From Shigella phage ESh16: 64,000 bases of DNA. A model generated the notes under the pieces. It searched no databases and was not told the origin of the DNA. It saw only the letters and a list, made by a program, of their open reading frames with translations. Below, piece after piece: positions 240 through 35,913 of this stretch (positions are counted from its first letter, which is position 1; every line of letters starts with the position of its first letter). The translations under genes and the position numbers were made by a program. Location of the stretch: sequence record ON528726; one strand, given 5' to 3'.

Positions 240-432
240 AAAGCAGATGTTTTTAATGAAGCTAATTGAAGAATATGCTAATGCAGTTTCTGACTATGAG
301 TATTCTGCTCGAGAAAGAGGTACAGCTTTCGCAAAGGAAGAAATGAAATTATGGTTGATGCTCACACAAAGCTTCAGAATTTTATTGAAAACGTCATTTA
401 ATGGTTTACAAGTTGGCAAGGTTATGATATAG
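229..432 (+). CDS. hypothetical protein (67 aa)
   Basis: ORF overlapping the previous stop; no motif recognised. Confidence 0.3.
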   Translation: MKTEKQMFLMKLIEEYANAVSDYEYSARERGTAFAKEEMKLWLMLTQSFRILLKTSFNGLQVGKVMI

Positions 433-614
433 TAATCTTGTCAACTGCCAAGGAGAAGAGAATGAAAGTTTTGTTTGTTGTGTATGTGATGATTCAATAT
501 AATTACCCAATGTTTACTTATAATCTGGTGAACAATATTATTGATATTATTCAAAGGAGTATGTAATGACAAGTGAACAAGCTTTTAAGTTAAGAGAATT
601 AATTGAAACTTTAA

Positions 615-893
615 TTGGTGAATAATGTGAGCTTTCCGAAATTAGAAGTAGGTGATTTAGTCTTAACAAAATTGTGGAATGGCGCTCAATCAGTAGAAAT
701 CTGTCAATATCGTGGAGCAACAGGTAATTTGATGTACACGATTTATAACCCAGAAATTTTGTTAGAGTGTCATTTGGAACGTTTTATAAAAGACACCGAT
801 AGTATGCCTTATAGTGTATCGATTGTACGTAAATCTGATACAAAGGAATACTCTAAAATTTTAAAACAAATTCGTGCCAATAAAAAGGATTAA
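615..893 (+). CDS. hypothetical protein (92 aa)
   Basis: ORF in track; stop TAA 891-893 just before next ATG. Confidence 0.35.
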   Translation: MVNNVSFPKLEVGDLVLTKLWNGAQSVEICQYRGATGNLMYTIYNPEILLECHLERFIKDTDSMPYSVSIVRKSDTKEYSKILKQIRANKKD

Positions 894-894
894 T

Positions 895-1428
895 ATGAAA
901 CGATTAGTACTAGAAGTTAGTTCACTTTTTGGTGAATTAGCTATAGAAAAAGTAAATAATATGTATCGTTTGACGCAAGAAGATGATATGATGTATTTTA
1001 CGCCTAGTGAAATCATTCATTTAACCCAAATTGAATATCCTTATACTGATAAAATAGTAAGCATTAATGATGAGAATAAAGTTCATTTTTATTCTTCATG
1101 CCCAGGATTTAATATTGAAAGCGAGTCAATGTGTTTATCAGTTATCCATTGGGATAGTTTTATAGATAAGATTAAATATTTTTATTATTCTAATGAAAGA
1201 AAACATAGTTTAAAATGGTTTAAAAATTGCAATGCTATTATTACTAACGCTTGCAATCAAAATGATGAAACTGTTTTAAACGTATCAAAATGCTATGAAG
1301 ATGGTGATGTCTTAACTATTCGTCAAATTGATGATTTTCGATCGCATATTGTCACATTTACCAAAGACGAAGCCATTGCGCTAAAGACTTATCTTGATTC
1401 TGTCATTCCAACTATGATTTCAAAGTGA
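895..1428 (+). CDS. hypothetical protein, tandem paralogue A1 (177 aa)
   Basis: Track ORF starts GTG 874; ATG at 895 directly after upstream stop. Shares GFNIE block and C-terminal motif with the next ORF. Confidence 0.5.
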   Translation: MKRLVLEVSSLFGELAIEKVNNMYRLTQEDDMMYFTPSEIIHLTQIEYPYTDKIVSINDENKVHFYSSCPGFNIESESMCLSVIHWDSFIDKIKYFYYSNERKHSLKWFKNCNAIITNACNQNDETVLNVSKCYEDGDVLTIRQIDDFRSHIVTFTKDEAIALKTYLDSVIPTMISK

Positions 1429-1434
1429 GGAAAT

Positions 1435-1956
1435 ATGTTTATTTCAAGTGGAAGTGGTTTAATTCGTGTTGAATTTAAAAATGACATCTTCCTTATTCAA
1501 GGAGATGATATTATTAAAATGAGTTATGACGAAATCAAGAAAATTTGTCATATTCTTGAAAGTCGTGGAAAAGGAAATGCTACTATCGATATAGGTGATT
1601 TATGGGTGACACTTTATGAAGTATCCGAAGGATTTAACATTGAAGATGAAAACAACATCTTAGCTATTGATAAAAGAAGCGATTTGTTTGATGTGTTAAA
1701 AGTTTATGAACAGTCAAACGGTGGAAGAAAAGCTGCATTGATTTATCAAAAACCACATTCATGCGGAACTGCTTCAATTATTTCAGATATTGAAGATGAA
1801 ACTGATACTTATATGTGTGTTTTAAAAGCTGGTGGTGACCGTCATCCGGATTTTATTTCTATTCGTCAAAACAATGGAGAAATTTCATTATCAAAATCAG
1901 AAGCTGAAGCTATGATTAAGTATTTAACAACTGTTACACCTTCAATGAAAGGATAA
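1435..1956 (+). CDS. hypothetical protein, tandem paralogue A2 (173 aa)
   Basis: C-terminus SKSEAEAMIKYLTTVTPSMKG parallels TKDEAIALKTYLDSVIPTMISK of the previous ORF. Confidence 0.5.
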   Translation: MFISSGSGLIRVEFKNDIFLIQGDDIIKMSYDEIKKICHILESRGKGNATIDIGDLWVTLYEVSEGFNIEDENNILAIDKRSDLFDVLKVYEQSNGGRKAALIYQKPHSCGTASIISDIEDETDTYMCVLKAGGDRHPDFISIRQNNGEISLSKSEAEAMIKYLTTVTPSMKG

Positions 1957-1958
1957 TT

Positions 1959-2420
1959 ATGATTATTAATGAAAACTCTTGGCACTATAAATTATTCAAA
2001 CTGTTTAATGATGAATGGAAACGACCTAAGACACTGTGTGCATACTTTTGGTCTATTGTTATCCCTACATTTTTCGTTTCTTTTTTCGGATGTACTATAC
2101 TCGCAGGTCTAACTATTATCTGTGCAGAAATCATGCAGAAATGGCTTATTTTTGGTAGTTTATGGACTCTTATTCCATCAGCATTTATACTTGCCATTTT
2201 GCTTGTTTTACTTATTATTGGTTCATTTGTTATTCCTGCACAACTGCATGAAAAATATAAAGATTATAAATGGAAAAAGGATTATGCTTTACATGTAGAA
2301 AATATTGATAGGGCGTATAAAGGTTTACCTCCTATTCAACCCAAGAAATCTATTATCGTCGAATTTTTAAAAGCGCGTAAAGCTAAAGTATGTCCTGTTA
2401 TTGAATATAAGGCTGAATGA
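1959..2420 (+). CDS. predicted membrane protein (153 aa)
   Basis: Several long hydrophobic stretches (FWSIVIPTFFVSFFGCTILAGLTIICA; LIPSAFILAILLVLLIIGSFVIP); stop overlaps next start. Confidence 0.45.
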   Translation: MIINENSWHYKLFKLFNDEWKRPKTLCAYFWSIVIPTFFVSFFGCTILAGLTIICAEIMQKWLIFGSLWTLIPSAFILAILLVLLIIGSFVIPAQLHEKYKDYKWKKDYALHVENIDRAYKGLPPIQPKKSIIVEFLKARKAKVCPVIEYKAE

Positions 2421-3430
2421 TGAAAACAGTAATGAAAAGCTATTTTGGTAGTCATCTTTATGGAACTTCTACTCCAGAATCTGATGTAGATTTTAAAGAA
2501 ATCTTTGTTCCTCCTGCTCGCGATATTCTTATTGGAAATGTTAAAGAGCATATGAGTAAAAACACTAACAACACATCATCTAAAAACACTAAAGATGATA
2601 TTGACCATGAACTATACAGTCTTAAGTATTTCTTTAAATTAGCAGCAGATGGTGAAACTGTAGCATTGGATATGCTCCACACTCCACCGGAACTAGTAGT
2701 TAAATCTGATTTGCCTGATGCATGGAAGTTTATTCAAGACAACCGTTCTCGTTTTTATACGACCAACATGAAATCCTACTTAGGATATGTTCGCAAGCAA
2801 GCTTCTAAATACGGTGTTAAGGGTTCTCGTTTGGCCGCATTACGTGATGTGTTGAAAGTAGTTAATCAAATCCCTGAGCAATGGGTTGATTACCAAGAAG
2901 ACGGTTCCATTAAGCAGCGTCGAACTAAAGTTGAAGATATTAAGCATCGTCTTCCAGAGAACGAATTCTGTGAATGGGTATTCCATAATCATGAGAAAAC
3001 AGGTCCACAAACGTTCTACACTGTGTTGGGTCGTAAATATCAAACAACGCTTTCTCTTATTGAGCTTAAGCAGTCTTTGAATAAACTTGATGCTGAATAC
3101 GGCGAACGTGCTCGTAAGGCTGAAGCGAATGAGGGCATTGACTGGAAAGCTCTGAGTCATGCTTGCCGTGGTGGACTCCAACTATTGGAAATTTACAAAA
3201 CTGGTGACTTAGTCTATCCACTTCAAGACGCTCCATTTATTCTCGACGTGAAGTTGGGTAAACATCCATTTAAAACTGTTCAAGAGTTTTTGGAAGATGT
3301 GGTCGATCAAGTAGAAGCAGCATCCATTGAAGCTTCTAAGAACGGTATGCAGCAAAAAGTAGACATGTGTTTTTGGGATGACTTCCTTGAGAGGGTTTAT
3401 CTTGAAAACCATCGAAGTTATTATAAATGA
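2417..3430 (+). CDS. nucleotidyltransferase-fold protein, MNT/pol-beta type (337 aa)
   Basis: N-terminal GSHLYGTSTPESDVDF fits the GS-x9-13-DxD motif of minimal nucleotidyltransferases; followed by a terminator hairpin. Confidence 0.55.
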   Translation: MMKTVMKSYFGSHLYGTSTPESDVDFKEIFVPPARDILIGNVKEHMSKNTNNTSSKNTKDDIDHELYSLKYFFKLAADGETVALDMLHTPPELVVKSDLPDAWKFIQDNRSRFYTTNMKSYLGYVRKQASKYGVKGSRLAALRDVLKVVNQIPEQWVDYQEDGSIKQRRTKVEDIKHRLPENEFCEWVFHNHEKTGPQTFYTVLGRKYQTTLSLIELKQSLNKLDAEYGERARKAEANEGIDWKALSHACRGGLQLLEIYKTGDLVYPLQDAPFILDVKLGKHPFKTVQEFLEDVVDQVEAASIEASKNGMQQKVDMCFWDDFLERVYLENHRSYYK

Positions 3431-3433
3431 TAG

Positions 3434-3457
3434 GGAGCCTTCGGGCTCCCTTTTTTT
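3434..3457 (+). terminator. rho-independent terminator (GGGAGCC-TTCG-GGCTCCC plus T7), 5' part of promoter cassette
   Basis: Perfect 7-bp stem, UUCG loop, TTTTTTT. Confidence 0.7.
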
Positions 3458-3462
3458 ATTTC

Positions 3463-3545
3463 AAAATTTTTTCACAAAACAGTTTACAAGCATAAAGCTT
3501 TATGGTACTATACAACTATCAACTGATACGGATTTGGAGAATAAA
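3463..3545 (+). promoter_or_regulatory. early promoter plus conserved leader (PeSL-like cassette copy)
   Basis: TTTTTCACAAAACAGTTTACA, TATGGTACTATACAACTATCAACTGATACGGATTTGGAGAAT, ATG 3546. Confidence 0.6.
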
Positions 3546-4514
3546 ATGAAAACTGTAACTATCAATAAGGGTATCTACTTCGGTAAAGAAATCTCTGGAA
3601 CTTTTGAGCTTTTAGGCGAATGGTTCCCAGATAATGCTCCGGTAGATGCACAAGGAGATGGTAAAGTTTTTGTTGAAATTGACGGTAAGCGTCGCGGTGT
3701 TTGGGTTTACAAATCAGATATTTCATATGATGGTGTAAAAGTTGAAGAAGTTAAAGAATCATATGAAGATATGAAAACCCGCATTAATAAAAGATTTAAT
3801 GTTATGGGAATGATGACGAATGGTATTATTAATGGAAATATTCGTTCATTGATTATCTCTGGCGCAGCAGGTATTGGTAAAACGTATTCTTTAGATAAAG
3901 CTTTAAATAAAGCAAATGATATTGGATACATTGAATATAAAAGCATTAATGGTAAAATCTCTGGTATTGGTCTTTATGAGCAGCTTTGGAATAATCGTGA
4001 AGAGAATTCTGTACTTTTGATTGATGATGTAGATGTTTTCTCTGATATGGACATTCTTAATCTTCTAAAAGCCGCTCTGGACACTGGAGAGACCCGTAAA
4101 GTCTGCTGGAGCACTGCGTCTTCTTACTTAGAAGAAAAAGGCATTGAGCGTGAGTTTGAATTTAAAGGAACGATTGTTTTTATCACAAACGTTGACATTG
4201 ACCGCGAATTAGACCGTGGTACTAAACTTGCTCCACATTTACAAGCATTAGTGTCCCGCTCAGTTTATTTAGATTTGGGTGTTCACACTAATGAAGAAAT
4301 TATGGTCAGGGTTGAAGATGTTATTCTTTCAACTGACATGATGCAAAAGCGCGGTCTTTCTGATGAAGAAACTTATAAAGCATTATCATGGATGAAAGTT
4401 AATGTTAATCGTTTACGCAATGTTTCACTGCGTACTGCTCTTTATCTTGCTGACTTTATTATGACCGACAAAAACGGTTGGGAAGAAATTGCTGAGGTTA
4501 CTCTTCTGAAATAA
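3546..4514 (+). CDS. P-loop (AAA-like) ATPase (323 aa)
   Basis: Walker A GAAGIGKT and Walker B LLIDDVD; true ATG at 3546 after promoter cassette (track ORF from 3378 reads through the promoter). Confidence 0.6.
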   Translation: MKTVTINKGIYFGKEISGTFELLGEWFPDNAPVDAQGDGKVFVEIDGKRRGVWVYKSDISYDGVKVEEVKESYEDMKTRINKRFNVMGMMTNGIINGNIRSLIISGAAGIGKTYSLDKALNKANDIGYIEYKSINGKISGIGLYEQLWNNREENSVLLIDDVDVFSDMDILNLLKAALDTGETRKVCWSTASSYLEEKGIEREFEFKGTIVFITNVDIDRELDRGTKLAPHLQALVSRSVYLDLGVHTNEEIMVRVEDVILSTDMMQKRGLSDEETYKALSWMKVNVNRLRNVSLRTALYLADFIMTDKNGWEEIAEVTLLK

Positions 4515-4612
4515 TTCATAAGAGGACTTCTATGACAAAAAGGCAGTTCAGAAATAGATTATATGGATTGCCATTAAAAAGATGACTAGAATTAAACTGG
4601 TGAATGGAGGTA

Positions 4613-4918
4613 ATGATGTTATACTCAAAGGCTCGTGAAATTTACGAAACTAAAATTAAAGAAGCAGTATTTAAGTTCGCAACGACAATGCGATGGACAA
4701 ATGACTGGGAGTATTCAAAAAATCATAAGAAGCCCATGGTGACAAGAAAGGCTCATATGTTAGTGTTAATAGACCGTGAGCAGATTAAAGCCCGAGAAGC
4801 CCTCCAGAATCATAAAAAGGCTGCCTTTGAATGGTTTATGGATAACACTGCTCCTGAGACTAAGAAAGCAGTGAGCGCCTGGTTCAGTGGAAAAAATTGT
4901 GAAAGAAGTTTCTTTTAG
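4613..4918 (+). CDS. hypothetical protein (about 101 aa)
   Basis: ORF with GGAGG at 4606-4610 ahead of in-frame ATGs at 4613/4616. Confidence 0.4.
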   Translation: MMLYSKAREIYETKIKEAVFKFATTMRWTNDWEYSKNHKKPMVTRKAHMLVLIDREQIKAREALQNHKKAAFEWFMDNTAPETKKAVSAWFSGKNCERSFF

Positions 4919-4978
4919 TGGTTTACAAGACTGTTCCTCTGTGGTACTATACAACTATCAACTACGGAGGAACAGAAA
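4911..4978 (+). promoter_or_regulatory. early promoter plus conserved leader (PeSL-like cassette copy)
   Basis: GTTTACAAGACTGTTCCTCTGTGGTACTATACAACTATCAACTACGGAGGAACAGAAA. Confidence 0.6.
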
Positions 4979-5506
4979 ATGAACGCTAAAGATATTTTCA
5001 ACTTGGTAAATTACAACGATGGTAAATTTAAATCTGAAGCACAAAGCAAGTTCTTTAATGACATCTCAATCGGAGGTGAAATCACTGTTGATGGAGGACA
5101 AATTTACAAATCCCGTTGGAATTGGATCGTTATTATTGATGAGATTGGTATTGTAGAAATTTACAAGAATACGAATAAAAATCGTACATTACACTGGTCT
5201 CGTGATACTAACGAACAGTACAAAAAGGATAAAGCATCTAAATTATCTCGTGTAACTCAAGAAGATATTGAGTTCATCAAGAAAGATATTTTAATGTATG
5301 ATAACTTAATTGCTGAAGAACAAGCTGTTATTGATAAATTTGACGAGATTAAAGCTTCTCGTGAAATTCCTGATTTTATGAAAGAATCGGTAAATGAACG
5401 ATACACTCTCATTTCAGAGCGTATTGAAACTTACAAAAAGCAAAGAGCTGAACGCCAAAATACTCTTCGGAAGTTTGAAGAACGGTTAAAGACGGTACTC
5501 GCATAA
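4979..5506 (+). CDS. hypothetical protein with C-terminal helical region (175 aa)
   Basis: ATG 4979 directly after promoter/leader cassette with GGAGG; charged helical C-terminus. Confidence 0.45.
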   Translation: MNAKDIFNLVNYNDGKFKSEAQSKFFNDISIGGEITVDGGQIYKSRWNWIVIIDEIGIVEIYKNTNKNRTLHWSRDTNEQYKKDKASKLSRVTQEDIEFIKKDILMYDNLIAEEQAVIDKFDEIKASREIPDFMKESVNERYTLISERIETYKKQRAERQNTLRKFEERLKTVLA

Positions 5507-5561
5507 CCGCTTTATACCAAGGATGGTATAATGGTTCTAAGCCCTTTTAATTGAGATTATT

Positions 5562-5969
5562 ATGAAACGGTTGATAATTAAAAGATTGAATTTATTGATA
5601 TGTTGTTTATGTGTAGTAGTTGCATATGGTTATTACGCAATTAATGATTATATGCATTATAAAGATTATGATGTTACTGTAGTTAATACCATTACAGGAA
5701 CACAAGGAAAAGGGTCTAGTTTATCGTTTATTGCCGTATATGAACTAAAAGACGGTTATAGATTTAGTGAATATATTTCCCCAGAGATGTATTCTTCAAT
5801 AGAAAAAGGTGATAATATTACTGTAAGTTTACGTCCTTTCGACGTAAAACAGACATTGTTTGATAATATTGTTTGGTTCTTTGGAATGGTATTAGTTCAA
5901 TCTGTGTGTGGTGCTTATATAGTCTGTTCCATCTTATTCTGTATATTTAGTAAAATTGAAATTGAGTGA
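5562..5969 (+). CDS. predicted membrane protein (135 aa)
   Basis: N-terminal (LLICCLCVVVAYGYYAI) and C-terminal (VWFFGMVLVQSVCGAYIVCSILFCIF) hydrophobic segments. Confidence 0.4.
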   Translation: MKRLIIKRLNLLICCLCVVVAYGYYAINDYMHYKDYDVTVVNTITGTQGKGSSLSFIAVYELKDGYRFSEYISPEMYSSIEKGDNITVSLRPFDVKQTLFDNIVWFFGMVLVQSVCGAYIVCSILFCIFSKIEIE

Positions 5970-5976
5970 GGAAAAT

Positions 5977-6867
5977 ATGTCAGTAGTAATTAATAATGTC
6001 AATGCAGTAATTAAATCTTTAGTTAATAAAAAAATGATGAATGAATGGACTGTATTTCGCCGTGCAGAGCCAGATAAATTTTTTCATAGATTTAACTCAA
6101 CTTTGGATTTGAATGTTATCGGCAGAGATGTTCATGCCGAAATTTTAGATAAGTTTAAAGTTGATATTGGATTTGGATTAGAAAAACATTTGCAGCGAAC
6201 AAATGGGTCTGGAATGAGTTTATCTAATCGCATTATGAAAGCTCTTAATAAAATTGGAGCATTGTCTCGTATTAACGCGAGTGAAATCCTTCGTAATTAT
6301 AATAAAGGATATGACCTTTATGGTCGACTAATGCCGAAATTATCATTCGATCAAATGATTGCGGATTTGTGGGAAAATCAACGACGATTATTAGCATTAG
6401 GCGCTCGATTAGCTAAAGGTCTAGATAAACAAATGATTTTTAAGACCAATAATACGGAAGACCTTAAATGCTTTAAATTTAGTACTCGTGGTATTGATTA
6501 TTATATCAGAGCTCACTCTACAGATTATGTCAATATGGGTCATCATCTCTGTTTAGCTTTTGAAGTTTTAAAAGAAGCTGGAACATTAGAATATTCATCT
6601 GGTGCAAAATGCCCTATTGGTTCAAGTTGTATTTTAATTTATCGCCCGGATGAATCCAGTTCAACTACATTGCCTACGAAACCTGTACCAGTTCGTAGTA
6701 ATGAAAAACATTCTGAACAAATTGATTATTTTAATAAGCAAATTGAAGAGCTGAATATTTCTATTCAACAATATGATGATGAAATTTTCAGACTATCTGG
6801 ACTGAGTAGTAAAGCTAAATCTGAGCGTGAAAAGTTAATTAAAATTGTCGATTTACTTAAATCTTAA
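5977..6867 (+). CDS. hypothetical protein with C-terminal coiled coil, possible family member P1 (296 aa)
   Basis: ATG 5977 after SD GAGGAAAA; C-terminal helical region similar in style to the next three ORFs. Confidence 0.45.
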   Translation: MSVVINNVNAVIKSLVNKKMMNEWTVFRRAEPDKFFHRFNSTLDLNVIGRDVHAEILDKFKVDIGFGLEKHLQRTNGSGMSLSNRIMKALNKIGALSRINASEILRNYNKGYDLYGRLMPKLSFDQMIADLWENQRRLLALGARLAKGLDKQMIFKTNNTEDLKCFKFSTRGIDYYIRAHSTDYVNMGHHLCLAFEVLKEAGTLEYSSGAKCPIGSSCILIYRPDESSSTTLPTKPVPVRSNEKHSEQIDYFNKQIEELNISIQQYDDEIFRLSGLSSKAKSEREKLIKIVDLLKS

Positions 6868-6875
6868 GGAATACC

Positions 6876-7898
6876 ATGAAAACTCGTTCTCAAATTGAAG
6901 ATATGGTTCGTACTGCCAGCGATACTCGTAATGTTATGACATTTTTGTGCGAAAATAATTTAGACCCTGATAAAGTTAATCGTGCTATTCATCACTTTAA
7001 ATATCTAAATAGCAGTGAATGGGTGAGTAATTTTAGTAAAGCGGGGTATATTACACAAATGACGGCTCGTGAGCAGCTTACCGATTTCTGTAAAACTATT
7101 GATTATAAAAATCCTCTATTTGTTCAAGGCGTTGGTCAAAGTAAGGTCGATTTATCATCTGGATTTTTCAATCCAAATCATTATCGTATTGAATGGAGAT
7201 TTATTGCTCTGTTCCGTAGACAATTAAAGCAAATTTTGTCGACTGCTAGTCGATTAAAAGGTTCTGACATTAACTTAAAGAACCTGAAATTTGATGGTTA
7301 TACTCTTCAGATGGAAGTAAGACCATTAAAAGAAAATAACAGAACTGCGCGAATTAGCTTTAAACCTAATACAAAAAATTCTCTTTCAATTTGCGAATGC
7401 CTTAAATCGCAGTTGACAGAAGCATTTAAGTATATGGATGTTGTTGCCACTGTTCAGTCTAAGATTTCACAGCATTTCGAACGATTTAAATTAGACACAA
7501 CAACATATGAACTTGATATGTTCGTTTCATTTAAATACGATTTTTTGAGAAAGGACGAAGTCCCGCAAGAGAAAAAGCAGGAAGTGCAAGATATCTTAAA
7601 TTTATCCAATTACTCATCAAACGATCCTAAATTTTGGATGTATAGCTCAAGCAATATAGATGCATGTAAACTTAATAAAGTGAGTTTTCTTCCTACTGAA
7701 AATTCAAATTTTAAACCTGTAGAAAAATGGCACGCTGACGCGATTGAGAAGTCTCTTAAGGCAGTAGATGATGAACTCGTTAAAGCGACCAATGAAGTGC
7801 TAGAAACTGAAAAGGTGTTAGAACAAGCTCAGTCAAGGGTTCAAAATCTGACAAAGCAACGTTCTAAACTGAACAATGCACTAAATGCACTAAACTAG
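6876..7898 (+). CDS. paralogue-family protein P2 (340 aa)
   Basis: N-terminus MKTRSQIED; block WRFIALFRRQLKQILSTASRLKGSD matches P3; C-terminal coiled coil. Confidence 0.55.
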   Translation: MKTRSQIEDMVRTASDTRNVMTFLCENNLDPDKVNRAIHHFKYLNSSEWVSNFSKAGYITQMTAREQLTDFCKTIDYKNPLFVQGVGQSKVDLSSGFFNPNHYRIEWRFIALFRRQLKQILSTASRLKGSDINLKNLKFDGYTLQMEVRPLKENNRTARISFKPNTKNSLSICECLKSQLTEAFKYMDVVATVQSKISQHFERFKLDTTTYELDMFVSFKYDFLRKDEVPQEKKQEVQDILNLSNYSSNDPKFWMYSSSNIDACKLNKVSFLPTENSNFKPVEKWHADAIEKSLKAVDDELVKATNEVLETEKVLEQAQSRVQNLTKQRSKLNNALNALN

Positions 7899-7927
7899 TT
7901 TACTTTGCCACAAGGATGTGGTATAAT
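7898..7927 (+). promoter_or_regulatory. early promoter (GTTTAC, TATAAT)
   Basis: GTTTACTTTGCCACAAGGATGTGGTATAAT; near-identical copy at 52118-52147. Confidence 0.6.
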
Positions 7928-12722: not shown

Positions 12723-14536
12723 CAATTGAAAAAGAAATTGAAGGATTGATTCATAAAACTAATAAAGACCTTTTGAACGAGAATGCTAATAAAGATTCTC
12801 GTGTTTTTCCAACTCAACGGGACCTTATGGCTGGTATTGTGTCTAAACACATTGCCAAAAATATGGTCCCGTCTTTTATTATGAAAGCGCATGAAAGCGG
12901 AATTATCCATTTCCATGATATTGATTATTCCCCTGCTCTTCCATTTACTAATTGCTGTTTAGTAGATTTAAAAGGAATGCTTGAAAACGGATTTAAGCTC
13001 GGTAATGCACAGATTGAAACTCCTAAATCAATCGGCGTTGCTACTGCAATTATGGCACAAATTACTGCACAGGTTGCTTCTCACCAATATGGTGGAACGA
13101 CTTTTGCGAATGTAGATAAAGTACTTTCTCCTTATGTTAAACGCACCTATGCAAAACATATTGAGGACGCAGAAAAATGGCAAATCGCTGATGCGTTGAA
13201 TTATGCTCAATCTAAAACAGAAAAAGACGTATACGATGCATTCCAAGCTTATGAATATGAAGTAAATACTCTTTTTAGTTCAAACGGACAAACGCCTTTT
13301 GTAACAATTACATTTGGTACGGGAACTGACTGGACTGAACGAATGATTCAGAAAGCAATTCTGAAAAATCGTATTAAAGGTCTTGGTCGCGATGGGATAA
13401 CTCCTATTTTCCCTAAGCTTGTTATGTTCGTTGAAGAAGGTGTTAATCTTTATAAAGATGATCCGAACTATGATATTAAGCAGCTTGCTCTAGAGTGTGC
13501 AAGCAAAAGAATGTATCCTGATATTATTTCAGCTAAGAACAATAAAGCTATCACTGGTTCATCTATTCCTGTTTCTCCAATGGGTTGCCGTAGTTTCTTA
13601 AGCGTATGGAAAGATTCGACTGGTAATGAAATTCTTGATGGACGTAATAATCTTGGTGTTGTAACACTGAATCTTCCTCGCATTGCGTTAGATTCTTATA
13701 TTGGAACACAGTTCAATGAACAAAAATTTGCCGAATTGTTCAATGAGCGAATGGATTTATGCTTTGAAGCTTTGATGTGTAGAATTAGTTCCTTAAAAGG
13801 AGTTAAAGCGACTGTTGCTCCTATTCTTTACCAAGAAGGTGCATTCGGGGTTCGTCTTAAACCTGATGACGACATAATTGAGTTATTTAAAAACGGTAGA
13901 AGTTCAGTGTCTTTGGGATACATTGGTATTCACGAATTGAATATTCTTGTCGGTCGTGATATTGGACAGGAAATTTTAACTAAAATGAATGCTCGTCTTA
14001 AGCAGTGGACTGAAAGAACCGGTTTTGCTTTTAGTTTGTATTCTACACCTGCTGAAAACCTTTGTTATCGCTTCTGTAAACTTGATACTGAAAAATATGG
14101 AAGTGTAAAAGATGTTACTGATAAAGGATGGTACACTAACAGTTTCCATGTTTCAGTAGAAGAAAATATCACTCCGTTTGAAAAGATTTCTCGCGAAGCA
14201 CCATATCATTTCATTGCGACAGGTGGTCACATTTCTTATGTTGAACTTCCTGATATGAAAAATAACCTAAAAGGTCTTGAGGCTGTATGGGATTATGCTG
14301 CACAACATTTAGATTATTTTGGTGTTAATATGCCAGTAGATAAATGTTTTACGTGTGGAAGTACTCATGAAATGACTCCTACTGAAAACGGATTTGTTTG
14401 TTCTATTTGTGGAGAAACTGATCCTAAAAAGATGAACACAATAAGAAGAACTTGTGGTTATTTGGGAAATCCGAACGAACGCGGATTTAATCTTGGAAAA
14501 AATAAAGAAATCATGCGTAGGGTTAAACACCAATGA
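12719..14536 (+). CDS. nrdD: anaerobic ribonucleotide reductase NrdD (605 aa), uninterrupted
   Basis: C-terminal glycyl-radical motif RRTCGYLG and four-Cys zinc site; length as recalled for T4 NrdD; no intron. Confidence 0.93.
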   Translation: MTIEKEIEGLIHKTNKDLLNENANKDSRVFPTQRDLMAGIVSKHIAKNMVPSFIMKAHESGIIHFHDIDYSPALPFTNCCLVDLKGMLENGFKLGNAQIETPKSIGVATAIMAQITAQVASHQYGGTTFANVDKVLSPYVKRTYAKHIEDAEKWQIADALNYAQSKTEKDVYDAFQAYEYEVNTLFSSNGQTPFVTITFGTGTDWTERMIQKAILKNRIKGLGRDGITPIFPKLVMFVEEGVNLYKDDPNYDIKQLALECASKRMYPDIISAKNNKAITGSSIPVSPMGCRSFLSVWKDSTGNEILDGRNNLGVVTLNLPRIALDSYIGTQFNEQKFAELFNERMDLCFEALMCRISSLKGVKATVAPILYQEGAFGVRLKPDDDIIELFKNGRSSVSLGYIGIHELNILVGRDIGQEILTKMNARLKQWTERTGFAFSLYSTPAENLCYRFCKLDTEKYGSVKDVTDKGWYTNSFHVSVEENITPFEKISREAPYHFIATGGHISYVELPDMKNNLKGLEAVWDYAAQHLDYFGVNMPVDKCFTCGSTHEMTPTENGFVCSICGETDPKKMNTIRRTCGYLGNPNERGFNLGKNKEIMRRVKHQ

Positions 14537-15644: not shown

Positions 15645-15665
15645 TGGGCCCTCTGGGCCTTTCTT
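15645..15665 (+). terminator. short GC hairpin (GGCCC tct GGGCC) with T-rich tail
   Basis: Inverted repeat right after nrdH stop. Confidence 0.35.
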
Positions 15666-15732
15666 TCTCACATTCTGTATATTACCATTCTAACTATCGT
15701 TCCCTTCTTATCATTCCCTAAAATAATTTTCA

Positions 15733-15775
15733 CAAAGTTGTTTACAAGAAGTTCAAACTGTGGTATTATTAACAC
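15733..15775 (+). promoter_or_regulatory. early-type promoter (GTTTAC -35, TGGTATTATTAAC -10)
   Basis: GTTTAC at 15740-15745 with extended -10 about 16 nt downstream. Confidence 0.5.
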
Positions 15776-15799
15776 ATGAATTGCCTTTGAGGAATTGAT

Positions 15800-18990: not shown

Positions 18991-19037
18991 GCTTTATAAA
19001 TTTTTGGTAAAATAAACCAAAACAATGAGGATATTAA

Positions 19038-20240
19038 ATGAAAGTATGCATTTTTATGGCTCGAGGTCTTGAAGGTTGCGGCGTAACTAAATTTTCTCTC
19101 GAGCAGCGTGATTGGTTTATTAAAAATGGTCATGAAGTAACTTTGGTTTATGCTAAAGATAAATCATTTACTCGTAATTGCGCGCATGATTATAAATCAT
19201 TTTCAATTCCGGTTTTATTGGCAAAAGAATACGATAAAACACTTAAGCTGGTAAATGATTGTGATATTCTAATTATCAATTCAGTTCCTGCTACTTCAGT
19301 CGAAGAAGACACTATTAATAACTATAAAAAAATTATTGATAACATTAAACCTTCGGTTCGTGTTGTAGTTTATCAACATGACCATTCTTCTCTTTCTTTG
19401 CGCCGAAATTTGGGATTAGAAGAAACTGTTCGTCGAGCTGATGTTATTTTTAGCCATTCTGATAATGGCGATTTTAATAAAGTTTTGATGAAAGAATGGT
19501 ATCCAGAAACAGTTTCTCTGTTTGATGATATTGAAGAAGCACCGACTGTATACAACTTTCAGCCTCCTATGGATATTGCGAAGGTTCGATCAACATACTG
19601 GAAAGATGTTTCTGAAATTAATATGAATGTCAACCGTTGGATTGGTCGTACGACTACATGGAAAGGTTTTTATCAGATGTTTGATTTTCACGAAAAACAT
19701 CTTAAACCTGCAGGACTAAGTACTATTATGGAAGGTCTGGAACGTTCTCCAGCGTTCATTCCTATTAAAGAAAAAGGAATTCCATATGAGTATTATCGTC
19801 TTCATCAAGTAGACCAAATTAAAATTGCTCCTAATTTGCCAACGCAAATTCTTGACCGTTATGTAAATAGCGAAATGCTTGAACGTATGAGTAAATCCGG
19901 ATTTGGTTATCAGTTGAGTAAGTTGGATAAAAAATATCTACAACGTTCTTTAGAATATACTCATCTCGAGCTTGGTGCGTGCGGAACAATTCCAGTATTT
20001 TGGAAATCTACTGGCGAAAATTTAAAATTCCGTGTTGATAATACTCCGTTAATTTCTCATGATAGCGGTATCGTTTGGTTTGATGAAAATGACATGGAAT
20101 CAACATTTGAGCGTATTAAAGAACTGTCATCTGACCGAACTCTTTATGACCGTGAACGCGAAAAAGCTTATGAATTTTTGTATCAGCATCAAGATTCAAG
20201 CTTCTGCTTTAAAGAACAGTTTGACATTATTACAAAATAA
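19038..20240 (+). CDS. a-gt: DNA alpha-glucosyltransferase (400 aa)
   Basis: CIFMARGLEGCGVTKFSLEQRDWFIKNGHEVTLVYAKDK as recalled for T4 alpha-gt; length 400 aa. Confidence 0.92.
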   Translation: MKVCIFMARGLEGCGVTKFSLEQRDWFIKNGHEVTLVYAKDKSFTRNCAHDYKSFSIPVLLAKEYDKTLKLVNDCDILIINSVPATSVEEDTINNYKKIIDNIKPSVRVVVYQHDHSSLSLRRNLGLEETVRRADVIFSHSDNGDFNKVLMKEWYPETVSLFDDIEEAPTVYNFQPPMDIAKVRSTYWKDVSEINMNVNRWIGRTTTWKGFYQMFDFHEKHLKPAGLSTIMEGLERSPAFIPIKEKGIPYEYYRLHQVDQIKIAPNLPTQILDRYVNSEMLERMSKSGFGYQLSKLDKKYLQRSLEYTHLELGACGTIPVFWKSTGENLKFRVDNTPLISHDSGIVWFDENDMESTFERIKELSSDRTLYDREREKAYEFLYQHQDSSFCFKEQFDIITK

Positions 20241-20908: not shown

Positions 20909-21041
20909 TAACGGAGTTAAGCAAATGTTATGTCATGAACCTCCTGGTCCTGAATGGGCAAAAGGAAAAATTAAAGAACTGGTTTCAAAAGCAGCTAAAT
21001 TAGGATGGAAAAGACATCATGAAAATACTAAACTTGGGTGA
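20417..21041 (+). mobile_element. seg-like homing endonuclease gene cassette between alpha-gt and gene 47
   Basis: GIY-YIG-like ORF plus downstream +1-frame extension; T4 as I recall has no seg gene at this position. Confidence 0.4.
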
Positions 21042-22038
21042 TTGGCATTTAGGCGTTAAAGCTGATGATGAGTGGATTCGCGGTATTCAAATTGATGGAA
21101 TTAAGCAAGCGATAGAATATTCTAAGAAAAATGGAATTACGGTATGGATTCAATATGGTGATATTTTTGATGTGCGAAAAGCGATCACGCATAAAACAAT
21201 GGAGTTTGCCCGTGAAATAGTTCAAATGCTTGATGACGCTGGAATCACATTACATACTATTGTAGGAAATCACGATCTCCACTACAAAAATGTAATGCAT
21301 CCAAATGCTTCTACTGAGCTTTTGGCTAAATATCCTAATGTTAAAGTATATGATAAGCCTACTACAGTAGATTTTGACGGATGTTTGATTGATTTAATTC
21401 CTTGGATGTGTGAAGAAAATACTGGTGAAATTCTTGAACATATCAAAACTTCATCTGCTTCTTTTTGTGTTGGTCACTGGGAACTGAATGGATTTTATTT
21501 TTATAAAGGAATGAAATCTCACGGTCTTGAACCTGATTTCCTTAAGACTTATAAAGAGGTGTGGTCTGGTCACTTCCATACTATCTCTGAGGCTGCTAAT
21601 GTCAGATATATTGGGACACCATGGACACTAACTGCAGGTGACGAGAATGACCCTCGCGGGTTCTGGATGTTTGATACAGAAACAGAACGAATGGAATTTA
21701 TTCCAAACAACACTACCTGGCATCGTCGAATTCAATATCCATTTAAGGGAAAAATTGACTATAAAGATTTTACAAATCTATCAGTACGTGTTATAGTAAC
21801 TGAAGTAGACAAAAATCTAACGAAGTTCGAATCTGAACTAGAAAAAGTTGTGCATTCATTACGAGTTGTGTCAAAGATTGATAACTCTGTCGAGTCAGAT
21901 GATAGTGAAGAAGTTGAAGTTCAATCTCTTCAGACATTGATGGAAGAATACATTAATGCAATTCCAGACATCACTGATTCTGATCGCGAAGCACTTATTC
22001 AATATGCAAATCAGTTATATGTAGAGGCAACACAATGA
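21019..22038 (+). CDS. 47: recombination nuclease subunit gp47, Mre11/SbcD-like (339 aa)
   Basis: N-terminal LNLGDWHLG and GNHD phosphoesterase motifs; length as recalled for T4 gp47. Confidence 0.92.
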   Translation: MKILNLGDWHLGVKADDEWIRGIQIDGIKQAIEYSKKNGITVWIQYGDIFDVRKAITHKTMEFAREIVQMLDDAGITLHTIVGNHDLHYKNVMHPNASTELLAKYPNVKVYDKPTTVDFDGCLIDLIPWMCEENTGEILEHIKTSSASFCVGHWELNGFYFYKGMKSHGLEPDFLKTYKEVWSGHFHTISEAANVRYIGTPWTLTAGDENDPRGFWMFDTETERMEFIPNNTTWHRRIQYPFKGKIDYKDFTNLSVRVIVTEVDKNLTKFESELEKVVHSLRVVSKIDNSVESDDSEEVEVQSLQTLMEEYINAIPDITDSDREALIQYANQLYVEATQ

Positions 22039-22298
22039 CTTTTGATGAATTTAAAAATGTTATGATGAGTCAGCATTTTGAATGCGAAGTAAAAGATGAT
22101 ATTGGGCATAAAGAAATTATTGAATATTGGTTTGAACCGCTAGAGGTTGAAGATAATTGTATTAAAAAGGTTACGGTCTGCACTGACTGGGCTGTATCTT
22201 TTAACTTCAACATTTTAGATAATGACACACCTAAATCATTACAAGATATGGCTGTATCTTGTATTAAGGATGCATACTGTGAAGTTTTCGACATTTGA
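22035..22298 (+). CDS. hypothetical protein (87 aa)
   Basis: ATGA overlap with gene 47 stop. Confidence 0.35.
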   Translation: MTFDEFKNVMMSQHFECEVKDDIGHKEIIEYWFEPLEVEDNCIKKVTVCTDWAVSFNFNILDNDTPKSLQDMAVSCIKDAYCEVFDI

Positions 22299-22485
22299 CA
22301 TTAACGATGAATTCATAGCAAATATTGATTACACCGAAGAAGATTCTAGATATGTTGGAATAATTTATATCACATCAAAATCAGCACAAGGTGTTGTTTG
22401 CATGGCTGAATTTGATGAATACTTTTTAGATTATGATGATATGATAGAATGGTCTAAAAGATACATTAAAAGGAATCTTTTGTGA
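22222..22485 (+). CDS. hypothetical protein (87 aa)
   Basis: ORF overlapping neighbours; start uncertain. Confidence 0.3.
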   Translation: MTHLNHYKIWLYLVLRMHTVKFSTFDINDEFIANIDYTEEDSRYVGIIYITSKSAQGVVCMAEFDEYFLDYDDMIEWSKRYIKRNLL

Positions 22486-24164: not shown

Positions 24165-24219
24165 TTTATAAGAGATTATGCTTTAATTTATTAGAGTATA
24201 ATCTCTATGGAGGAAAAAC

Positions 24220-24408
24220 ATGGAATATTCAACTGGACAGCATCTATTAACTATTCCTGAAATAAAACGATATATTCTGAGAAATAATTTTTCTAATGAA
24301 GAGCATATAGTTACTGAATCTATGCTTAAGAATGCATTTAAAGCAGAATATACGAAAATAATGTCCAACAGAAATGAAGCTTGGACTGTTACTGATTATT
24401 ATGACTAA
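24220..24408 (+). CDS. hypothetical protein (62 aa)
   Basis: ORF with SD GGAGGAAAAACATG. Confidence 0.35.
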   Translation: MEYSTGQHLLTIPEIKRYILRNNFSNEEHIVTESMLKNAFKAEYTKIMSNRNEAWTVTDYYD

Positions 24409-24417
24409 AGGTGTATT

Positions 24418-24807
24418 ATGACTAAAATTACTGTGAATTATACTGTTGATGTAAAAGATATTCAGCCAAAACACGTGCGTTCTGATTCAAATCCACAAAA
24501 CCAAAATAAAATTCGTCGAGCATGGGTTTTGTCTCTTTCTGATAACGCAATGGAAGTTATTCAGAATAAAATTAAATCTGCACCTGCTCGTCATGCGTAT
24601 TATGAAGCTATCGATCGTGAAGTAAGTAATAAATGGATTGAACTAATGCGCAAACATACGACAGAATCTTTAAATGCTGGTGCTAAATTTATTATGACTT
24701 CATGTGGTGAACGCCTTGAAGATGATTATTGCGGTAATGCAGATGAACGTCTAATTGTTGCTGCTCAAATTGTTGCGGAAACAATTGCTTCTGATTTTAA
24801 TCGTTAA
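24418..24807 (+). CDS. rpbA: RNA polymerase-binding protein RpbA (129 aa)
   Basis: Length and position between 46 and 45 as recalled for T4 rpbA. Confidence 0.7.
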
Positions 24808-24862
24808 TTGCTTTATTAAATTAGTTATAAAATTAAATCTCATTTGAATTGAAGGAAATTAC

Positions 24863-25549: not shown

Positions 25550-25553
25550 TAAA

Positions 25554-25566
25554 GGGCTTCGGCCCT
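25554..25566 (+). terminator. UUCG-loop hairpin GGGC-TTCG-GCCC
   Basis: Hairpin after gene 45; T-run weak. Confidence 0.4.
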
Positions 25567-25598
25567 TAAATTTACACTAAAACTTGAATGAGGAAATT

Positions 25599-26558: not shown

Positions 26559-26559
26559 T

Positions 26560-27123: not shown

Positions 27124-27124
27124 A

Positions 27125-27493: not shown

Positions 27494-27496
27494 GCA

Positions 27497-27513
27497 AGGG
27501 GCTTCGGCCCCTT
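27497..27513 (+). terminator. rho-independent terminator (GGGGC-UUCG-GCCCC)
   Basis: AGGGGCTTCGGCCCCTTATTT after regA. Confidence 0.55.
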
Positions 27514-27534
27514 ATTTGGAGTATAATATATCAA

Positions 27535-30268: not shown

Positions 30269-30281
30269 TAGAATAAATCTA

Positions 30282-35890: not shown

Positions 35891-35913
35891 GTTGGTTAAA
35901 TGAGGAGATTGTT

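Follow-up and report, generated by a model that had tools for sequence, protein, structure and literature searches.

The window analysed here is a 64,000-nt stretch of Shigella phage ESh16 (ON528726), a member of Tequatrovirus with ~95% identity to T4 (90-97% over most of its length) and 99-100% identity to Shigella phage ESh34. Seven short cassettes, each composed of an early promoter (Pe) and a leader ending at the Shine-Dalgarno (SD) sequence and ATG of an ORF, lie between nrdC.11 and nrdC.10 (3433-3545), nrdC.9 and nrdC.8 (4911-4978), gene 43 and imm.1 (30281-30449), motB and cef (48611-48702), denB and ORF 56669 (56597-56668), ndd.5 and ndd.4 (57108-57175), and motA.1 and motA (60204-60324). 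All are on the + strand, which is the early-transcribed strand, 5' of early genes. They cluster in the mobD-nrdC region (404-7900), the denB-ndd-motA region (56597-62780), at motB-cef, and directly after gene 43 (30282), with none inside the 46/47/45/44/62/43 replication block (21000-30268).

The cassettes differ in the placement of their stem-loop. Three of them (named, like the others below, by their starts of 3434, 30282 and 60205 or by a neighboring gene) open with an intrinsic terminator, consisting of a G+C-rich hairpin and T-run after a stop codon (dG -13.9 to -17.6, z -3.6 to -4.2). In the nrdC.10 cassette, the terminator (GGGAGCC-UUCG-GGCUCCC at about 3432-3451, plus T-run; dG -16.2, z -3.6) is followed by an UP element (TTTTTTCACAAAACA, 3467-3481), a GTTTACA -35 (3482-3488), a TGn/-10 element (TGGTACTAT, 3503-3511), a predicted +1 at 3518, and a type-A leader whose SD region is GGAGAATAAAA (3536-3546). 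The imm.1 cassette, likewise with a type-A leader, begins with AGGGACC-UCCG-GGUCCCU (30281-30298) and a T-run, then has ~65 nt of filler before its UP element (30364-30385), -35 (30386-30392), TGGTACTAT (30407-30415), and SD GGAGAATGAAA (30440-30450). Finally, the motA cassette carries the terminator AGGGAGAGC-CGAG-GCUCUCCCU (60204-60225, plus T-run; dG -17.6, z -4.2), an UP element (60232-60253), -35 (60254-60260), TGGTACTAT (60275-60283), a predicted +1 at 60290, the leader ATCAACTACTGATACAGAATTAC, and the SD GGAGATTAGAA (60313-60323).

In three other cassettes (4911, 48611, and 57108), the stem-loop spans the -10; these hairpins lack the T-run that an intrinsic terminator would have. The nrdC.8 cassette, which has no upstream terminator (the nrdC.9 stop codon lies at 4916-4918), contains a -35 at 4921-4927, TGGTACTAT at 4942-4950, a predicted +1 at 4957, and the SD GGAGG at 4966-4970 in a type-B leader. 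The arms of its 15-bp hairpin (4931-4945 and 4961-4975) place the -10 in the loop and pair all four SD positions (dG -28.5, z -6.5 over 4915-4990; z -6.3 in a separate promoter-hairpin fold). The ndd.4 cassette is similarly built, with a -35 at 57118-57124, TGGTATTAT at 57139-57147, the SD at 57163-57167 in a type-B leader, and a 15-bp hairpin (57128-57142 and 57158-57172) with the -10 in its loop and the SD paired (dG -23.2, z -4.9). At motB-cef, a degenerate -35, ATATACA (48630-48636), and TGGTACTAT (48651-48659) are followed by the SD region GGAGAATAAAA (48693-48703); a perfect 13-bp inverted repeat, ATCAGTAGTTGAT (48636-48648) and ATCAACTACTGAT (48666-48678), brackets the -10 (z -4.6), and the ATG opens a remnant ORF of 11 codons (48703-48738). 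The denB cassette has its hairpin, CCACAAGGAATGTGG, within the spacer, between the UP element TTTTCACAAAATG with the -35 (56612-56618) and TGGTACTAT (56633-56641), and its type-B-like leader has the SD GGAGG at 56657-56661. SD and ATG end all of the cassettes.

An earlier note, made from the letters of the window alone, had placed seven such modules at these positions, all directly 5' of an ATG, and that description holds. Its count of at least seven copies was also right, as there are more: a clear eighth family member at 15719-15799 (+ strand), with a different leader and its ATG at 15800, has the UP element AATTTTCACAAAGTT, a -35 at 15740-15746, TGGTATTAT at 15761-15769, and a terminator-like hairpin upstream (15646-15660). 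Other details needed amendment. Terminators are indeed found in three copies, but the UUCG loop ascribed to them belongs to 3434 alone (UCCG in 30282 and CGAG in 60205); the element TTTTTCACAAAAC occurs in 3434, 30282, and 60205 but has only degenerate counterparts in 56597 and 48611 and none in 4911 or 57108; and the GTTTACA -35 is found in six of the seven, the exception being 48611. More broadly, AAAATTTTTCACAAAAC or a variant of it lies 5' of the -35 as an UP element in 3434, 15719, 30282, 48611, 56597, and 60205, with an A/T-rich stretch in this position at 57108 and a weaker one at 4911.

Together with ~11 looser promoters of T4 early type (404, 7898, 35855, 36358, 39641, 41747, 43082, 46941, 48043, 52118, and 62719), which have the core in common with the cassettes but not the leader, the seven cassettes and the 15719-15799 copy bring the Pe total in the window to 19. 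A promoter at 512 was considered as a further cassette, with a T4-versus-window breakpoint at its ATG, and was rejected; it falls within the reading frame of mobD.2 (462-566), whose stop codon the nearby junction simply follows. Pfam and PHROG scans of the downstream genes gave a weak, sub-threshold AAA/STAND NTPase match for nrdC.10, identified imm.1 as DUF5481, and confirmed motA. An Rfam scan of the whole window returned no family at threshold, and the leaders are thus not explained by a known structured RNA. Two pattern scans of IMG/VR yielded 10 and 8 loci on a few T4-like contigs, too few for a covariation model.

Similarity among the cassettes exceeds what a promoter consensus would require. 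The pattern GTTTACA-N14-20-TGGTAYTAT has seven matches in the window (six of the listed copies plus 15740) versus 0.00 expected from 100 shuffles, and GGTACTATACAACTATCAACT, allowing up to 3 mismatches, occurs six times versus 0.01 expected. An independent repeat search recovered the same families (D1-D5). Spacing is 17 bp in every copy, including 48611 with its ATATACA, and all copies are on the sense strand directly 5' of ORFs. Near-identity of pairs over 40-60 bp, as the earlier note had it, is borne out by the pairwise matches: 4920-4963 equals 30385-30428 exactly (44 nt), 3503-3552 and 30407-30456 differ at one of 50 nt, 4955-4983 equals 57152-57180 exactly (29 nt), and 30364-30393 and 60232-60261 differ at one of 30 nt. 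Among 190 promoter pairs, spacers typically agree at 4-7 of 16 positions; those of nrdC.8, imm.1, and ndd.4 are identical (16/16), and those of nrdC.4 and rIIA.1 agree at 15/16. Chance or generic promoter consensus as the cause of the likeness is rejected by the shuffles and by this distribution of spacer identity. The leaders are conserved as well, in type A (ATCAACT(AC)TGATACGGATTTGGAGAATrAAATG) and type B (ATCAACTACGGAGGAACAGAAAATG), rather than in generic consensus positions only, and their pattern of sharing among cassettes is mosaic. For example, the imm.1 cassette can be pieced together from matches to three others, with the UP element of the motA cassette, the spacer of nrdC.8/ndd.4, and the leader of nrdC.10.

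The promoters themselves are those of T4. The T4 Pe consensus comprises GTTTAC at -36 to -31, an A-rich UP element, and a GT-rich TGn (PMC1524935; PMC2988021); those of ESh16 share GTTTAC(A/T) at -36 to -31, the 17-bp spacer, TGn plus TAnnAT, and an A/T-rich UP region. Furthermore, all seven cassettes have a T4 orthologue upstream of the same genes, so that the two sets correspond site by site: T4 55384 (3434), 53943 (4911), 41706 (the eighth copy, 15719), 27080 (30282), 167086, 166807 (57108), and 163673 (60205), with an identical site at motB-cef (48611). In phage fPS-65, the orthologous sites are annotated with a terminator and early promoter, and the equivalent of the motA cassette with a terminator and a predicted early promoter. 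On the basis of this annotation and general knowledge, we take the orthologous T4 sites to be mapped early promoters. Nothing essential differs between T4 and ESh16; differences are confined to points and segments. Specifically, the three spacers homogenized to 16/16 in ESh16 show differences of 1-4 nt in T4, and the denB promoter is followed by a different leader and a different gene in each of the two phages.

Leader conservation is partly of known functional cause, and not a product of recombination alone, since the SD overlaps a predicted RegB/S1 site. In T4 early mRNAs, the 11-nt cleavage consensus GGAGAAUAAAA overlaps the SD, RegB requires single-stranded RNA, and motA RNA is a documented substrate (Durand et al. 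2006, PMC1702504). In ESh16, GGAGAATAAAA at 3536-3546 and 48693-48703 matches this consensus (GGAGRAYARAA) exactly, and the SD regions at 30440-30450 (GGAGAATGAAA) and, in motA, 60313-60323 (GGAGATTAGAA) deviate from it once each. The putative sites over the SD thus agree with the consensus exactly in two cassettes and approximately in the others. The type-B leaders (GGAGGAACAGA) deviate more, at positions 7-9, and in a read-through transcript they would be base-paired.

Relatives of ESh16 differ from it in and around these cassettes. Among genomes that were picked because BLAST split them into pieces, and that are therefore a biased sample, five of the seven cassettes have an indel junction within them or at their edge, and three of the events are insertions flanked by repeated cassette segments (in ECO07P3, ESh36, and VIPECOOM02). 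The nrdC.11/nrdC.10 cassette has insertions in ESh36 (junction 3534-3552) and ECO07P3 (junction region 3432-3487), while the gene 43/imm.1 cassette is followed in many relatives (e.g., JB75) by an extra 78-aa ORF (junction 30450-30463). At the denB cassette, one promoter core heads three downstream configurations (junction 56654-56666), with ORF 56669 in the window, the ndd.6 type in T4 and RB18, and an extra 68-aa ORF in slur04 and VIPECOOM02. In the motA cassette of VIPECOOM02, ECML-123-2, and G3F10, a 75-aa ORF, found in 168 phage records, and a second promoter are inserted at 60275-60297. No indel was seen at the 4911 cassette among the four genomes compared. At motB-cef, CM8 and JLBYU31 have an intact ORF of 89-93 aa, and the window and T4 share a deletion of ~200 bp (junction 48703-48713); this event upstream of cef is internal, 10 nt past the ATG, and not a cassette-to-cassette crossover. 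Indels were also observed in the same regions away from cassettes, at 55815-56023 and 61309-61334, together with an insertion resembling a homing endonuclease at 4495-4531.

Exchange of whole segments is indicated as well. Orthologous cassettes in different phages carry different paralogous segments; for example, the ndd.5/ndd.4 cassette of GRNsp7 and L012 has a loop and -10 of the nrdC.8 type, a pattern that indicates conversion between paralogous cassettes. Likewise, two modules of the form promoter-ORF-promoter/terminator are 92-100% identical across genera, while the flanking genes are only 55-78% identical. These are a Pe-ORF-Pe island shared by JS10 (Dhakavirus) and Tequatrovirus (94-100%, versus 55-78% in the flanks) and a Pe-ORF-terminator island shared by STML-198 (Gelderlandvirus) and Tequatrovirus (92-100%), and both begin and end in cassettes. 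The case for recombination is made here from flanking repeats and island boundaries, and not from breakpoint enrichment relative to random positions, because an indel of a whole gene can only have intergenic junctions and cassettes constitute much of the intergenic DNA. For the same reason, in a genome packed this tightly, selection on viable recombinants would by itself bring junctions and cassettes together to some extent.

Cassettes of this kind are already known, from the promoter early stem-loop (PeSL) model developed with RB49/phi1 (Arbiol et al. 2010, PMC2839356) and T4/PST (Comeau, Arbiol, and Krisch 2014, PMC4122927; consensus TTTACW-N17-TAYWAT), and the ndd.4/.5 locus present in the window is itself a published T4/PST example (Fig. 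6A of PMC4122927). As in both published sets, the ESh16 cassettes have a stem-loop and an AT-rich region ahead of the early promoter and the SD and ATG after it. Their copies are likewise many and conserved, clustered in hyperplastic regions and present beside gene 43, and close relatives differ by indels whose crossovers lie between the -10 and ATG. In RB49, recombinants or mini-circles with crossovers inside the cassettes were sequenced (PMC2839356), and the ESh16 junctions between -10 and ATG match those sites. The RB49/phi1 PeSLs differ in having near-perfect TTGACA/TATAAT promoters and stems of G/C runs, and the authors regard the T-even versions as their analogues, not homologues. The legend of the T4/PST figure puts the stem-loops just upstream of the promoter, whereas many in ESh16 span the -10, the commonest position reported for RB49/phi1.

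With a probability of about 85%, then, the cassettes are the heads of early (Pe) transcription units of a T4-like phage that are used as portable homology according to the PeSL model. The earlier note's proposal of PeSL-like terminator/early-promoter/leader cassettes is supported by their observed anatomy and mosaicism, their orthology to T4 promoters, the junction positions, the flanking repeats, and the cross-genus islands. Each cassette would first insulate its gene from upstream transcription, either with a terminator (3434, 30282, and 60205) or with a stem-loop within or around the core promoter. It would then provide a very strong sigma-70 promoter of the T4 type (UP / GTTTAC / TGn / TAnnAT), served by unmodified host RNA polymerase directly after infection. 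A short leader, from ATCAACT at the predicted +1 to an SD that would also serve as a RegB/S1 site (GGAG with an A-rich tail), would follow, and RegB cleavage would switch the early message off a few minutes into infection. Since the copies share blocks of 20-50 nt, these would serve the phage's homologous recombination as portable homology; crossovers between cassettes would insert, delete, or replace the small ORFs between them and would also convert segments of one cassette into those of another, giving mosaic spacers and leaders. Promoter activity, RegB cleavage, and mini-circle recombination in ESh16 we infer from the literature.

Two qualifications apply to the model as first stated for this DNA. 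To call the cassettes mobile overstates the case, since all seven are positionally stable between ESh16 and T4; they are fixed landmarks at which other DNA moves. The genes immediately downstream had also been proposed as candidates for shuffled modules, but nrdC.10, nrdC.8, imm.1, ndd.4, and motA are syntenic in every Tequatrovirus sampled, and of the candidates ORF 56669 alone is itself variably present. Variation lies in additional small ORFs, which are inserted between a cassette and the conserved genes downstream.

The strongest competing explanation is conservation for function only, in which each element is selected singly for strength or timing and the cassettes have no role in gene shuffling. 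Each conserved block does have a known or plausible function, all seven cassettes sit at orthologous T4 loci, and intergenic junctions are expected from selection in any case. Spacers, however, have no base-specific requirement in a promoter, yet they agree at 16/16 in three copies against a background of 4-7/16, and ~11 other functional-looking Pe in the window do without the shared leader, which is therefore not needed for promoter function. Moreover, orthologous cassettes differ by whole paralogous segments and not by point changes, cassette repeats flank the inserts, and cross-genus islands of identity are bounded by cassettes. Thus, function as the sole cause is unlikely.

Even less probable is a role for the -10-spanning stem-loops as DNA, in which cruciforms or hairpins would draw a nuclease or binding protein and so create hot spots of recombination, rather than acting as RNA. 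The PeSL authors did speculate that the stem-loop may be a target of recombination proteins, and the hairpins fall within promoter cassettes, themselves sites of recombination. Against this, each of the eight such hairpins folds more stably as sense-strand RNA than its complement does, by 2-10 kcal/mol, and each includes G.U pairs (20 of 121 bp overall), in whose place the opposite strand has A.C mismatches. Among orthologues, 10 of 13 stem substitutions retain RNA pairing, mostly via G.U intermediates, and the cassettes with repeat-flanked junctions (3434 and 60205) are those that lack such hairpins. Lastly, it is highly improbable that the cassettes are autonomous or site-specific elements (MITE-like or integron attC-like) mobilized by a dedicated recombinase, despite their short, repeated form, the variable ORFs that they bound, and the integron analogy drawn by the PeSL authors. 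They have no terminal inverted repeats or target-site duplications, they occupy fixed orthologous loci, and synteny with T4 reveals no integrase-like gene. In addition, junctions vary between events (T-run/UP, -10/leader, SD/ATG), which fits homologous exchange over any shared block and not a fixed site.

Use of the cassettes as portable homology is thus largely a rediscovery, from raw sequence, of the information-rich early promoters of T-even phages and of the PeSL model. For annotation, it places ~19 heads of early transcription units, three terminators, and likely RegB sites in ESh16, and it flags empty insertion sites at nrdC.11/nrdC.10, 43/imm.1, denB/ndd, and motA.1/motA. The Tequatrovirus-Dhakavirus and Tequatrovirus-Gelderlandvirus islands lend independent support to a model that has rested on three phage pairs.

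The promoter-spanning hairpins are possibly new. Eight of the 19 early promoters are enclosed in a strong RNA-sense hairpin that has the -10 in its loop, and four of these have a fully paired SD. Besides the cassettes described above, such hairpins occur (all on the + strand) at the early promoters of mobD.2 (404-461; GTTTACA ... TATAGT, 15 bp, -10 in loop, z -4.5 and -3.7), gene 41/dmd (35855-35913; 15 bp spanning the -10, z -4.0), modB (41747-41805; 14 bp, with the -10 as 5' arm and the SD and AUG in the 3' arm, z -4.4), motB.2 (46941-47000; 17 bp, -10 in loop, SD (GAGG) 4/4 paired, z -5.8), and motB (48043-48119; GGGACCA ... TGGTCCT bracketing a TATAAT -10, z -3.6 and -3.7). In the promoters at 4921, 57118, 46941, and 41747, the SD is paired at 4/4 positions and the whole 5' arm precedes the predicted +1. 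None of the five cassettes with an upstream terminator has a promoter-spanning hairpin.

We tentatively suggest that, at ~40% of early promoters (8/19), the hairpin may act as a translational insulator in place of a terminator. In this scheme, the 5' arm would come from the untranscribed spacer and the loop from the -10 hexamer, while the leader would supply the 3' arm, in which the SD/RegB site is fully paired in four cases. A transcript from the cassette's own promoter would lack the 5' arm and be open to ribosomes and RegB, while read-through RNA from an upstream unit would fold and be closed. If true, such a gate would account for the conservation of promoter spacers, which can normally drift, and for their co-variation with leaders, as well as for the ability of a cassette placed beside any ORF to confer autonomous expression. 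If functional, hairpin-gated early promoters would also offer a simple design rule for insulated expression units, of some interest in phage engineering.

Precedents exist in T4 genes e, soc, 49, and I-TevI, where hairpins with an internal promoter sequester the ribosome-binding site (reviewed in PMC3014915). As in ESh16, the SD lies in the 3' arm of the helix and the promoter in the 5' arm or loop, and the gene's own transcript, lacking the 5' arm, is translatable while longer upstream transcripts are not. Those genes, however, have late promoters (TATAAATA) that delay expression, whereas the late promoter is absent from the ESh16 hairpins, whose internal promoters are of early sigma-70 type; the ESh16 hairpins are therefore analogues of that set and not members of it, and their predicted effect is insulation of adjacent early units instead of control of timing. 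We found no description in the literature of hairpin gating at early promoters, the documented cases being the late-promoter genes e, soc, 49, and I-TevI. With regard to covariation, the nrdC.8 and ndd.4 stems have no double compensatory change, only G.U-mediated changes and two fraying changes at the base of the stem. The 404 hairpin has four substitutions among orthologues, all of which keep pairing, and compensatory changes were found only between this hairpin and its paralogue at 35855, where a U-A pair has become C-G twice.

The window comes from a Tequatrovirus that is 90-97% identical to T4 over most of its length, with Shigella phage ESh34 as the closest record. It extends from mobD through nrdC, 55, 47/46, 45/44/62, 43, 42, uvsX, 41, 61, 56, mod, dda, motB, 39/60, rIIA/B, denB, ndd, 52 and motA up to asiA, and its + strand is the early-transcribed strand of T4. 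Direct reading of each stretch confirmed the seven repeated promoter cassettes that an earlier note had described, all on the + strand and all ending at an ATG. T4 carries an orthologue of each at the corresponding locus: nrdC.11/nrdC.10 (3434-3545), nrdC.9/nrdC.8 (4911-4978), 43/imm.1 (30282-30449), motB/cef (48611-48702), the denB/ndd.6 position (56597-56668), ndd.5/ndd.4 (57108-57175) and motA.1/motA (60205-60324). Equivalent sites in Yersinia phage fPS-65 are annotated as a terminator plus a predicted early promoter.

Cassette anatomy matches the consensus of T4 early promoters in its GTTTAC (-36 to -31), its A-rich UP element and its GT-rich extended -10; reviews term these "uber" promoters and describe extra consensus regions (PMC1524935; PMC2988021). 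Specifically, the -35 is GTTTACA (ATATACA at 48611), followed by a 16-nt spacer segment and TGGTA(C/T)TAT. ACAACT or a one-base variant precedes ATCAACT in five of the seven, CAAT and TACCCT stand there in 48611 and 57108, respectively, and 56597 has ATCAGCT at the ATCAACT position. In every cassette, GGAG(G/A) closes the short leader 5-8 nt from the ATG. The window contains the combined -35/extended -10 pattern seven times (0.00 expected) and a 21-nt -10/leader core six times (0.01 expected), and a separate repeat search finds the same families. The family extends beyond the seven listed: an eighth copy at 15719-15799 clearly belongs to it, and about eleven further T4-type early promoters have the core in common but not the leader. 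A hairpin and T-run terminator is indeed present in three copies, but the UUCG loop claimed for all three is not, the loops being UUCG, UCCG and CGAG. A small hairpin, CCACAAGG(A)ATGTGG, is common to three early promoters (7906-7923, 52126-52143 and 56620-56637); it lies wholly inside the spacer, its 3' half being the TGTGG of the extended -10.

The likeness among cassettes exceeds promoter consensus. Near-identical pairs do run over long stretches, with 4920-4963 and 30385-30428 exact over 44 nt and 3503-3552 and 30407-30456 differing by one mismatch in 50 nt. Across 190 pairs among 20 promoter-like sites (one, at 512, was dropped later), spacer identity was usually 4-7 of 16, reaching 16/16 among nrdC.8, imm.1 and ndd.4 and 15/16 between nrdC.4 and rIIA.1. 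The type A leader, ATCAACTGATACGGATTTGGAGAATrAAATG, is common to 3434 and 30282, and the type B leader, ATCAACTACGGAGGAACAGAAAATG, to 4911 and 57108. Mosaic make-up is seen in the imm.1 cassette, where the UP segment matches that of motA, the spacer that of nrdC.8 and the leader that of nrdC.10. A single orthologous cassette also carries differing paralogous segments from phage to phage. For example, the motA cassette of VIPECOOM02 has an nrdC.10-type spacer, the ndd.4 cassette of GRNsp7 has an nrdC.8-type -10/loop, and the cassette downstream of denB has three unlike leaders in T4, slur04 and the window. Some of the conservation in the leader probably reflects a known function, RegB/S1 cleavage: GGAGAATAAAA, at 3536-3546 and 48693-48703, is an exact match to the consensus at which RegB/S1 cuts early mRNAs of T4, one documented substrate being motA RNA (PMC1702504).

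The comparison covered T4 along the whole window, eight other genomes for the rIIB-asiA region, three for mobD-nrdC, and single examples for imm.1 and for cef. Among these genomes, picked because BLAST split them into pieces, five of the seven cassettes have an indel junction within them or at their edge, although the junctions of whole-gene indels are necessarily intergenic and cassettes occupy much of the intergenic DNA. Indels away from cassettes also occur in the same regions (55815-56023, 61309-61334 and a homing-endonuclease-like insertion at 4495-4531), and cassette 4911 showed no variation in the genomes compared. Between nrdC.11 and nrdC.10, ESh36 has two additional ORFs and a second promoter (junction 3534-3552); in ECO07P3, the insert consists of a promoter, a modA-like ORF and a terminator and lies between two copies of the hairpin/T-run/UP segments. 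Many phages carry an additional 78-aa ORF at 43/imm.1, joined at the ATGAAAAT start. The denB cassette combines one promoter core with three alternative downstream contents (junction 56654-56666). At motA.1/motA, a 75-aa ORF and second promoter are inserted at 60275-60297 in 3 of 9 genomes compared, with -10/leader repeats on both flanks. Crossovers sequenced in RB49 mini-circles fall between the -10 and the ATG (PMC2839356), the same position as the cassette junctions of the window. The genes downstream had been proposed as candidate shuffled modules, but of those named only ORF 56669 (phrog_2390; absent from T4 and RB18, present in 575 records) is variably present; nrdC.10 (with a weak, sub-threshold AAA/STAND match), nrdC.8, imm.1 (DUF5481), ndd.4 and motA are conserved, keeping their synteny in all Tequatroviruses sampled. 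At motB/cef, an 11-codon ORF after the promoter (48703-48738) is the remnant of a gene intact in CM8 and JLBYU31 (89-93 aa); T4 has the remnant too, with a deletion of about 200 bp, as in the window.

Two cross-genus comparisons give the strongest new support for cassettes as exchange sites. The motA-adjacent 75-aa ORF occurs in 168 phage records, and its promoter-ORF-promoter block (JS10 ~1440-1850; VIPECOOM02 ~5715-6130; empty site in the window, 60275-60297) is 94-100% identical between JS10, a Dhakavirus, and Tequatrovirus from the -10 of the upstream cassette to roughly 20 nt inside motA; in gp52 and motA on either side, identity is 55-78%. The block points to recent transfer between genera, with early-promoter cassettes as its boundaries. 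Similarly, a module of a promoter and a modA-like ORF (161 aa, ADP-ribosyltransferase-like), found in Tequatroviruses including T2, is 92-100% identical between ECO07P3 (3473-4170) and the Gelderlandvirus STML-198 (1716-2351), while its flanks either show 65-78% identity or cannot be aligned; the window has the empty site (3432-3487). In STML-198, the module is followed by a type A -10/leader copy that lacks a -35 and would drive a different ORF.

Layout, indel junctions and cross-genus islands agree with the promoter-early stem-loop (PeSL) concept, in which cassettes serve as portable homology for swapping small phage genes, and the PeSL-like interpretation is supported. PeSLs were described in RB49/phi1 by promoter, terminator and mini-circle experiments (PMC2839356). 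A later paper applied the concept expressly to T4/PST, giving the consensus TTTACW-N17-TAYWAT and working through the ndd.4/.5 exchange as an example (PMC4122927); a similar earlier observation concerns T-even internal-protein loci (Repoila 1994, as cited in PMC2839356). The observation is confirmed, but features of this kind are already known. What is added is annotation, cross-genus evidence that independently supports the PeSL model, and a testable hypothesis of hairpin-gated early promoters.

This hypothesis arises from folding each promoter as RNA from the -35 to the ATG, with z computed against dinucleotide shuffles. Eight of 19 promoters (404, 4921, 35855, 41747, 46941, 48043, 48630 and 57118) form a 12-18-bp hairpin spanning the -10, with z of -3.7 to -6.3. 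Stem sequences differ and the geometry is constant: the spacer, upstream of the predicted +1, supplies the 5' arm, the leader supplies the 3' arm, and the -10 hexamer occupies the loop (at 41747 it is the 5' arm). The Shine-Dalgarno sequence is fully paired at 4921, 57118, 46941 and 41747. No T-run follows any of the eight, so they are not intrinsic terminators. Such hairpins occur in none of the five terminator-preceded cassettes versus 8 of 14 others (hypergeometric p about 0.04). In all eight, the sense RNA is more stable than its complement by 2-10 kcal/mol, and G.U pairs make up 20 of 121 bp. Pairing is kept by 10 of 13 distinct orthologue substitutions in stems, and two U-A pairs of the hairpin at 404 are C-G pairs in its paralogue at 35855, a double change each time. 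We infer, as the simplest reading, that a transcript from the cassette's own promoter would leave the ribosome-binding site open, and that read-through RNA from the upstream unit would close it. The documented hairpins of e, soc, 49 and I-TevI follow the same logic (PMC3014915), but at late rather than early promoters; hairpin-gated early promoters may be new.

The window also holds a second repeat family, near-identical GGGCTTCGGCCC hairpins (C-UUCG-G tetraloop) between genes at 16603, 20241, 25553, 27497, 50233, 55515 and 55744, some followed by a T-run, which resemble the classic stable intercistronic hairpins of T4. The indel hot spot at 55815-56023 contains a 196-bp segment that adjoins two UUCG hairpins, is flanked by a direct repeat of ~19 bp, and is present in the window, slur04 and ECML-123-2 and absent from T4, RB18, GRNsp7, VIPECOOM02, fPS-65, G3F10 and CT01. 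It is reminiscent of GGGC/GCCC-associated deletions (Mosig et al. 1998, as cited in the PeSL paper). ESh34, otherwise 100% identical, has 733 bp inserted at the nrdC.10 3' end (ESh34 4496-5229; window 4495-4531), and the ORF in this insert looks, by eye, like a GIY-YIG (seg-type) homing endonuclease. Relative to T4, the window lacks dam and all homing-endonuclease genes of the region (mobD, the I-TevII intron in nrdD, mobC, mobB, segA, segF and mobA), and an unlike 282-aa ORF (31974-32822) replaces beta-glucosyltransferase; these differences lie at 1453-2416, 13254-13257, 14553, 19022-19047, 31965-32912, 38740-38761, 39282-39318 and 51718-51783. At 50298-52118, genes 39 and 60 are joined in a single continuous 606-aa ORF; the mobA insertion specific to T4 is missing, as are gene 60.1 and the 50 nt of gene 60 that undergo translational bypass.
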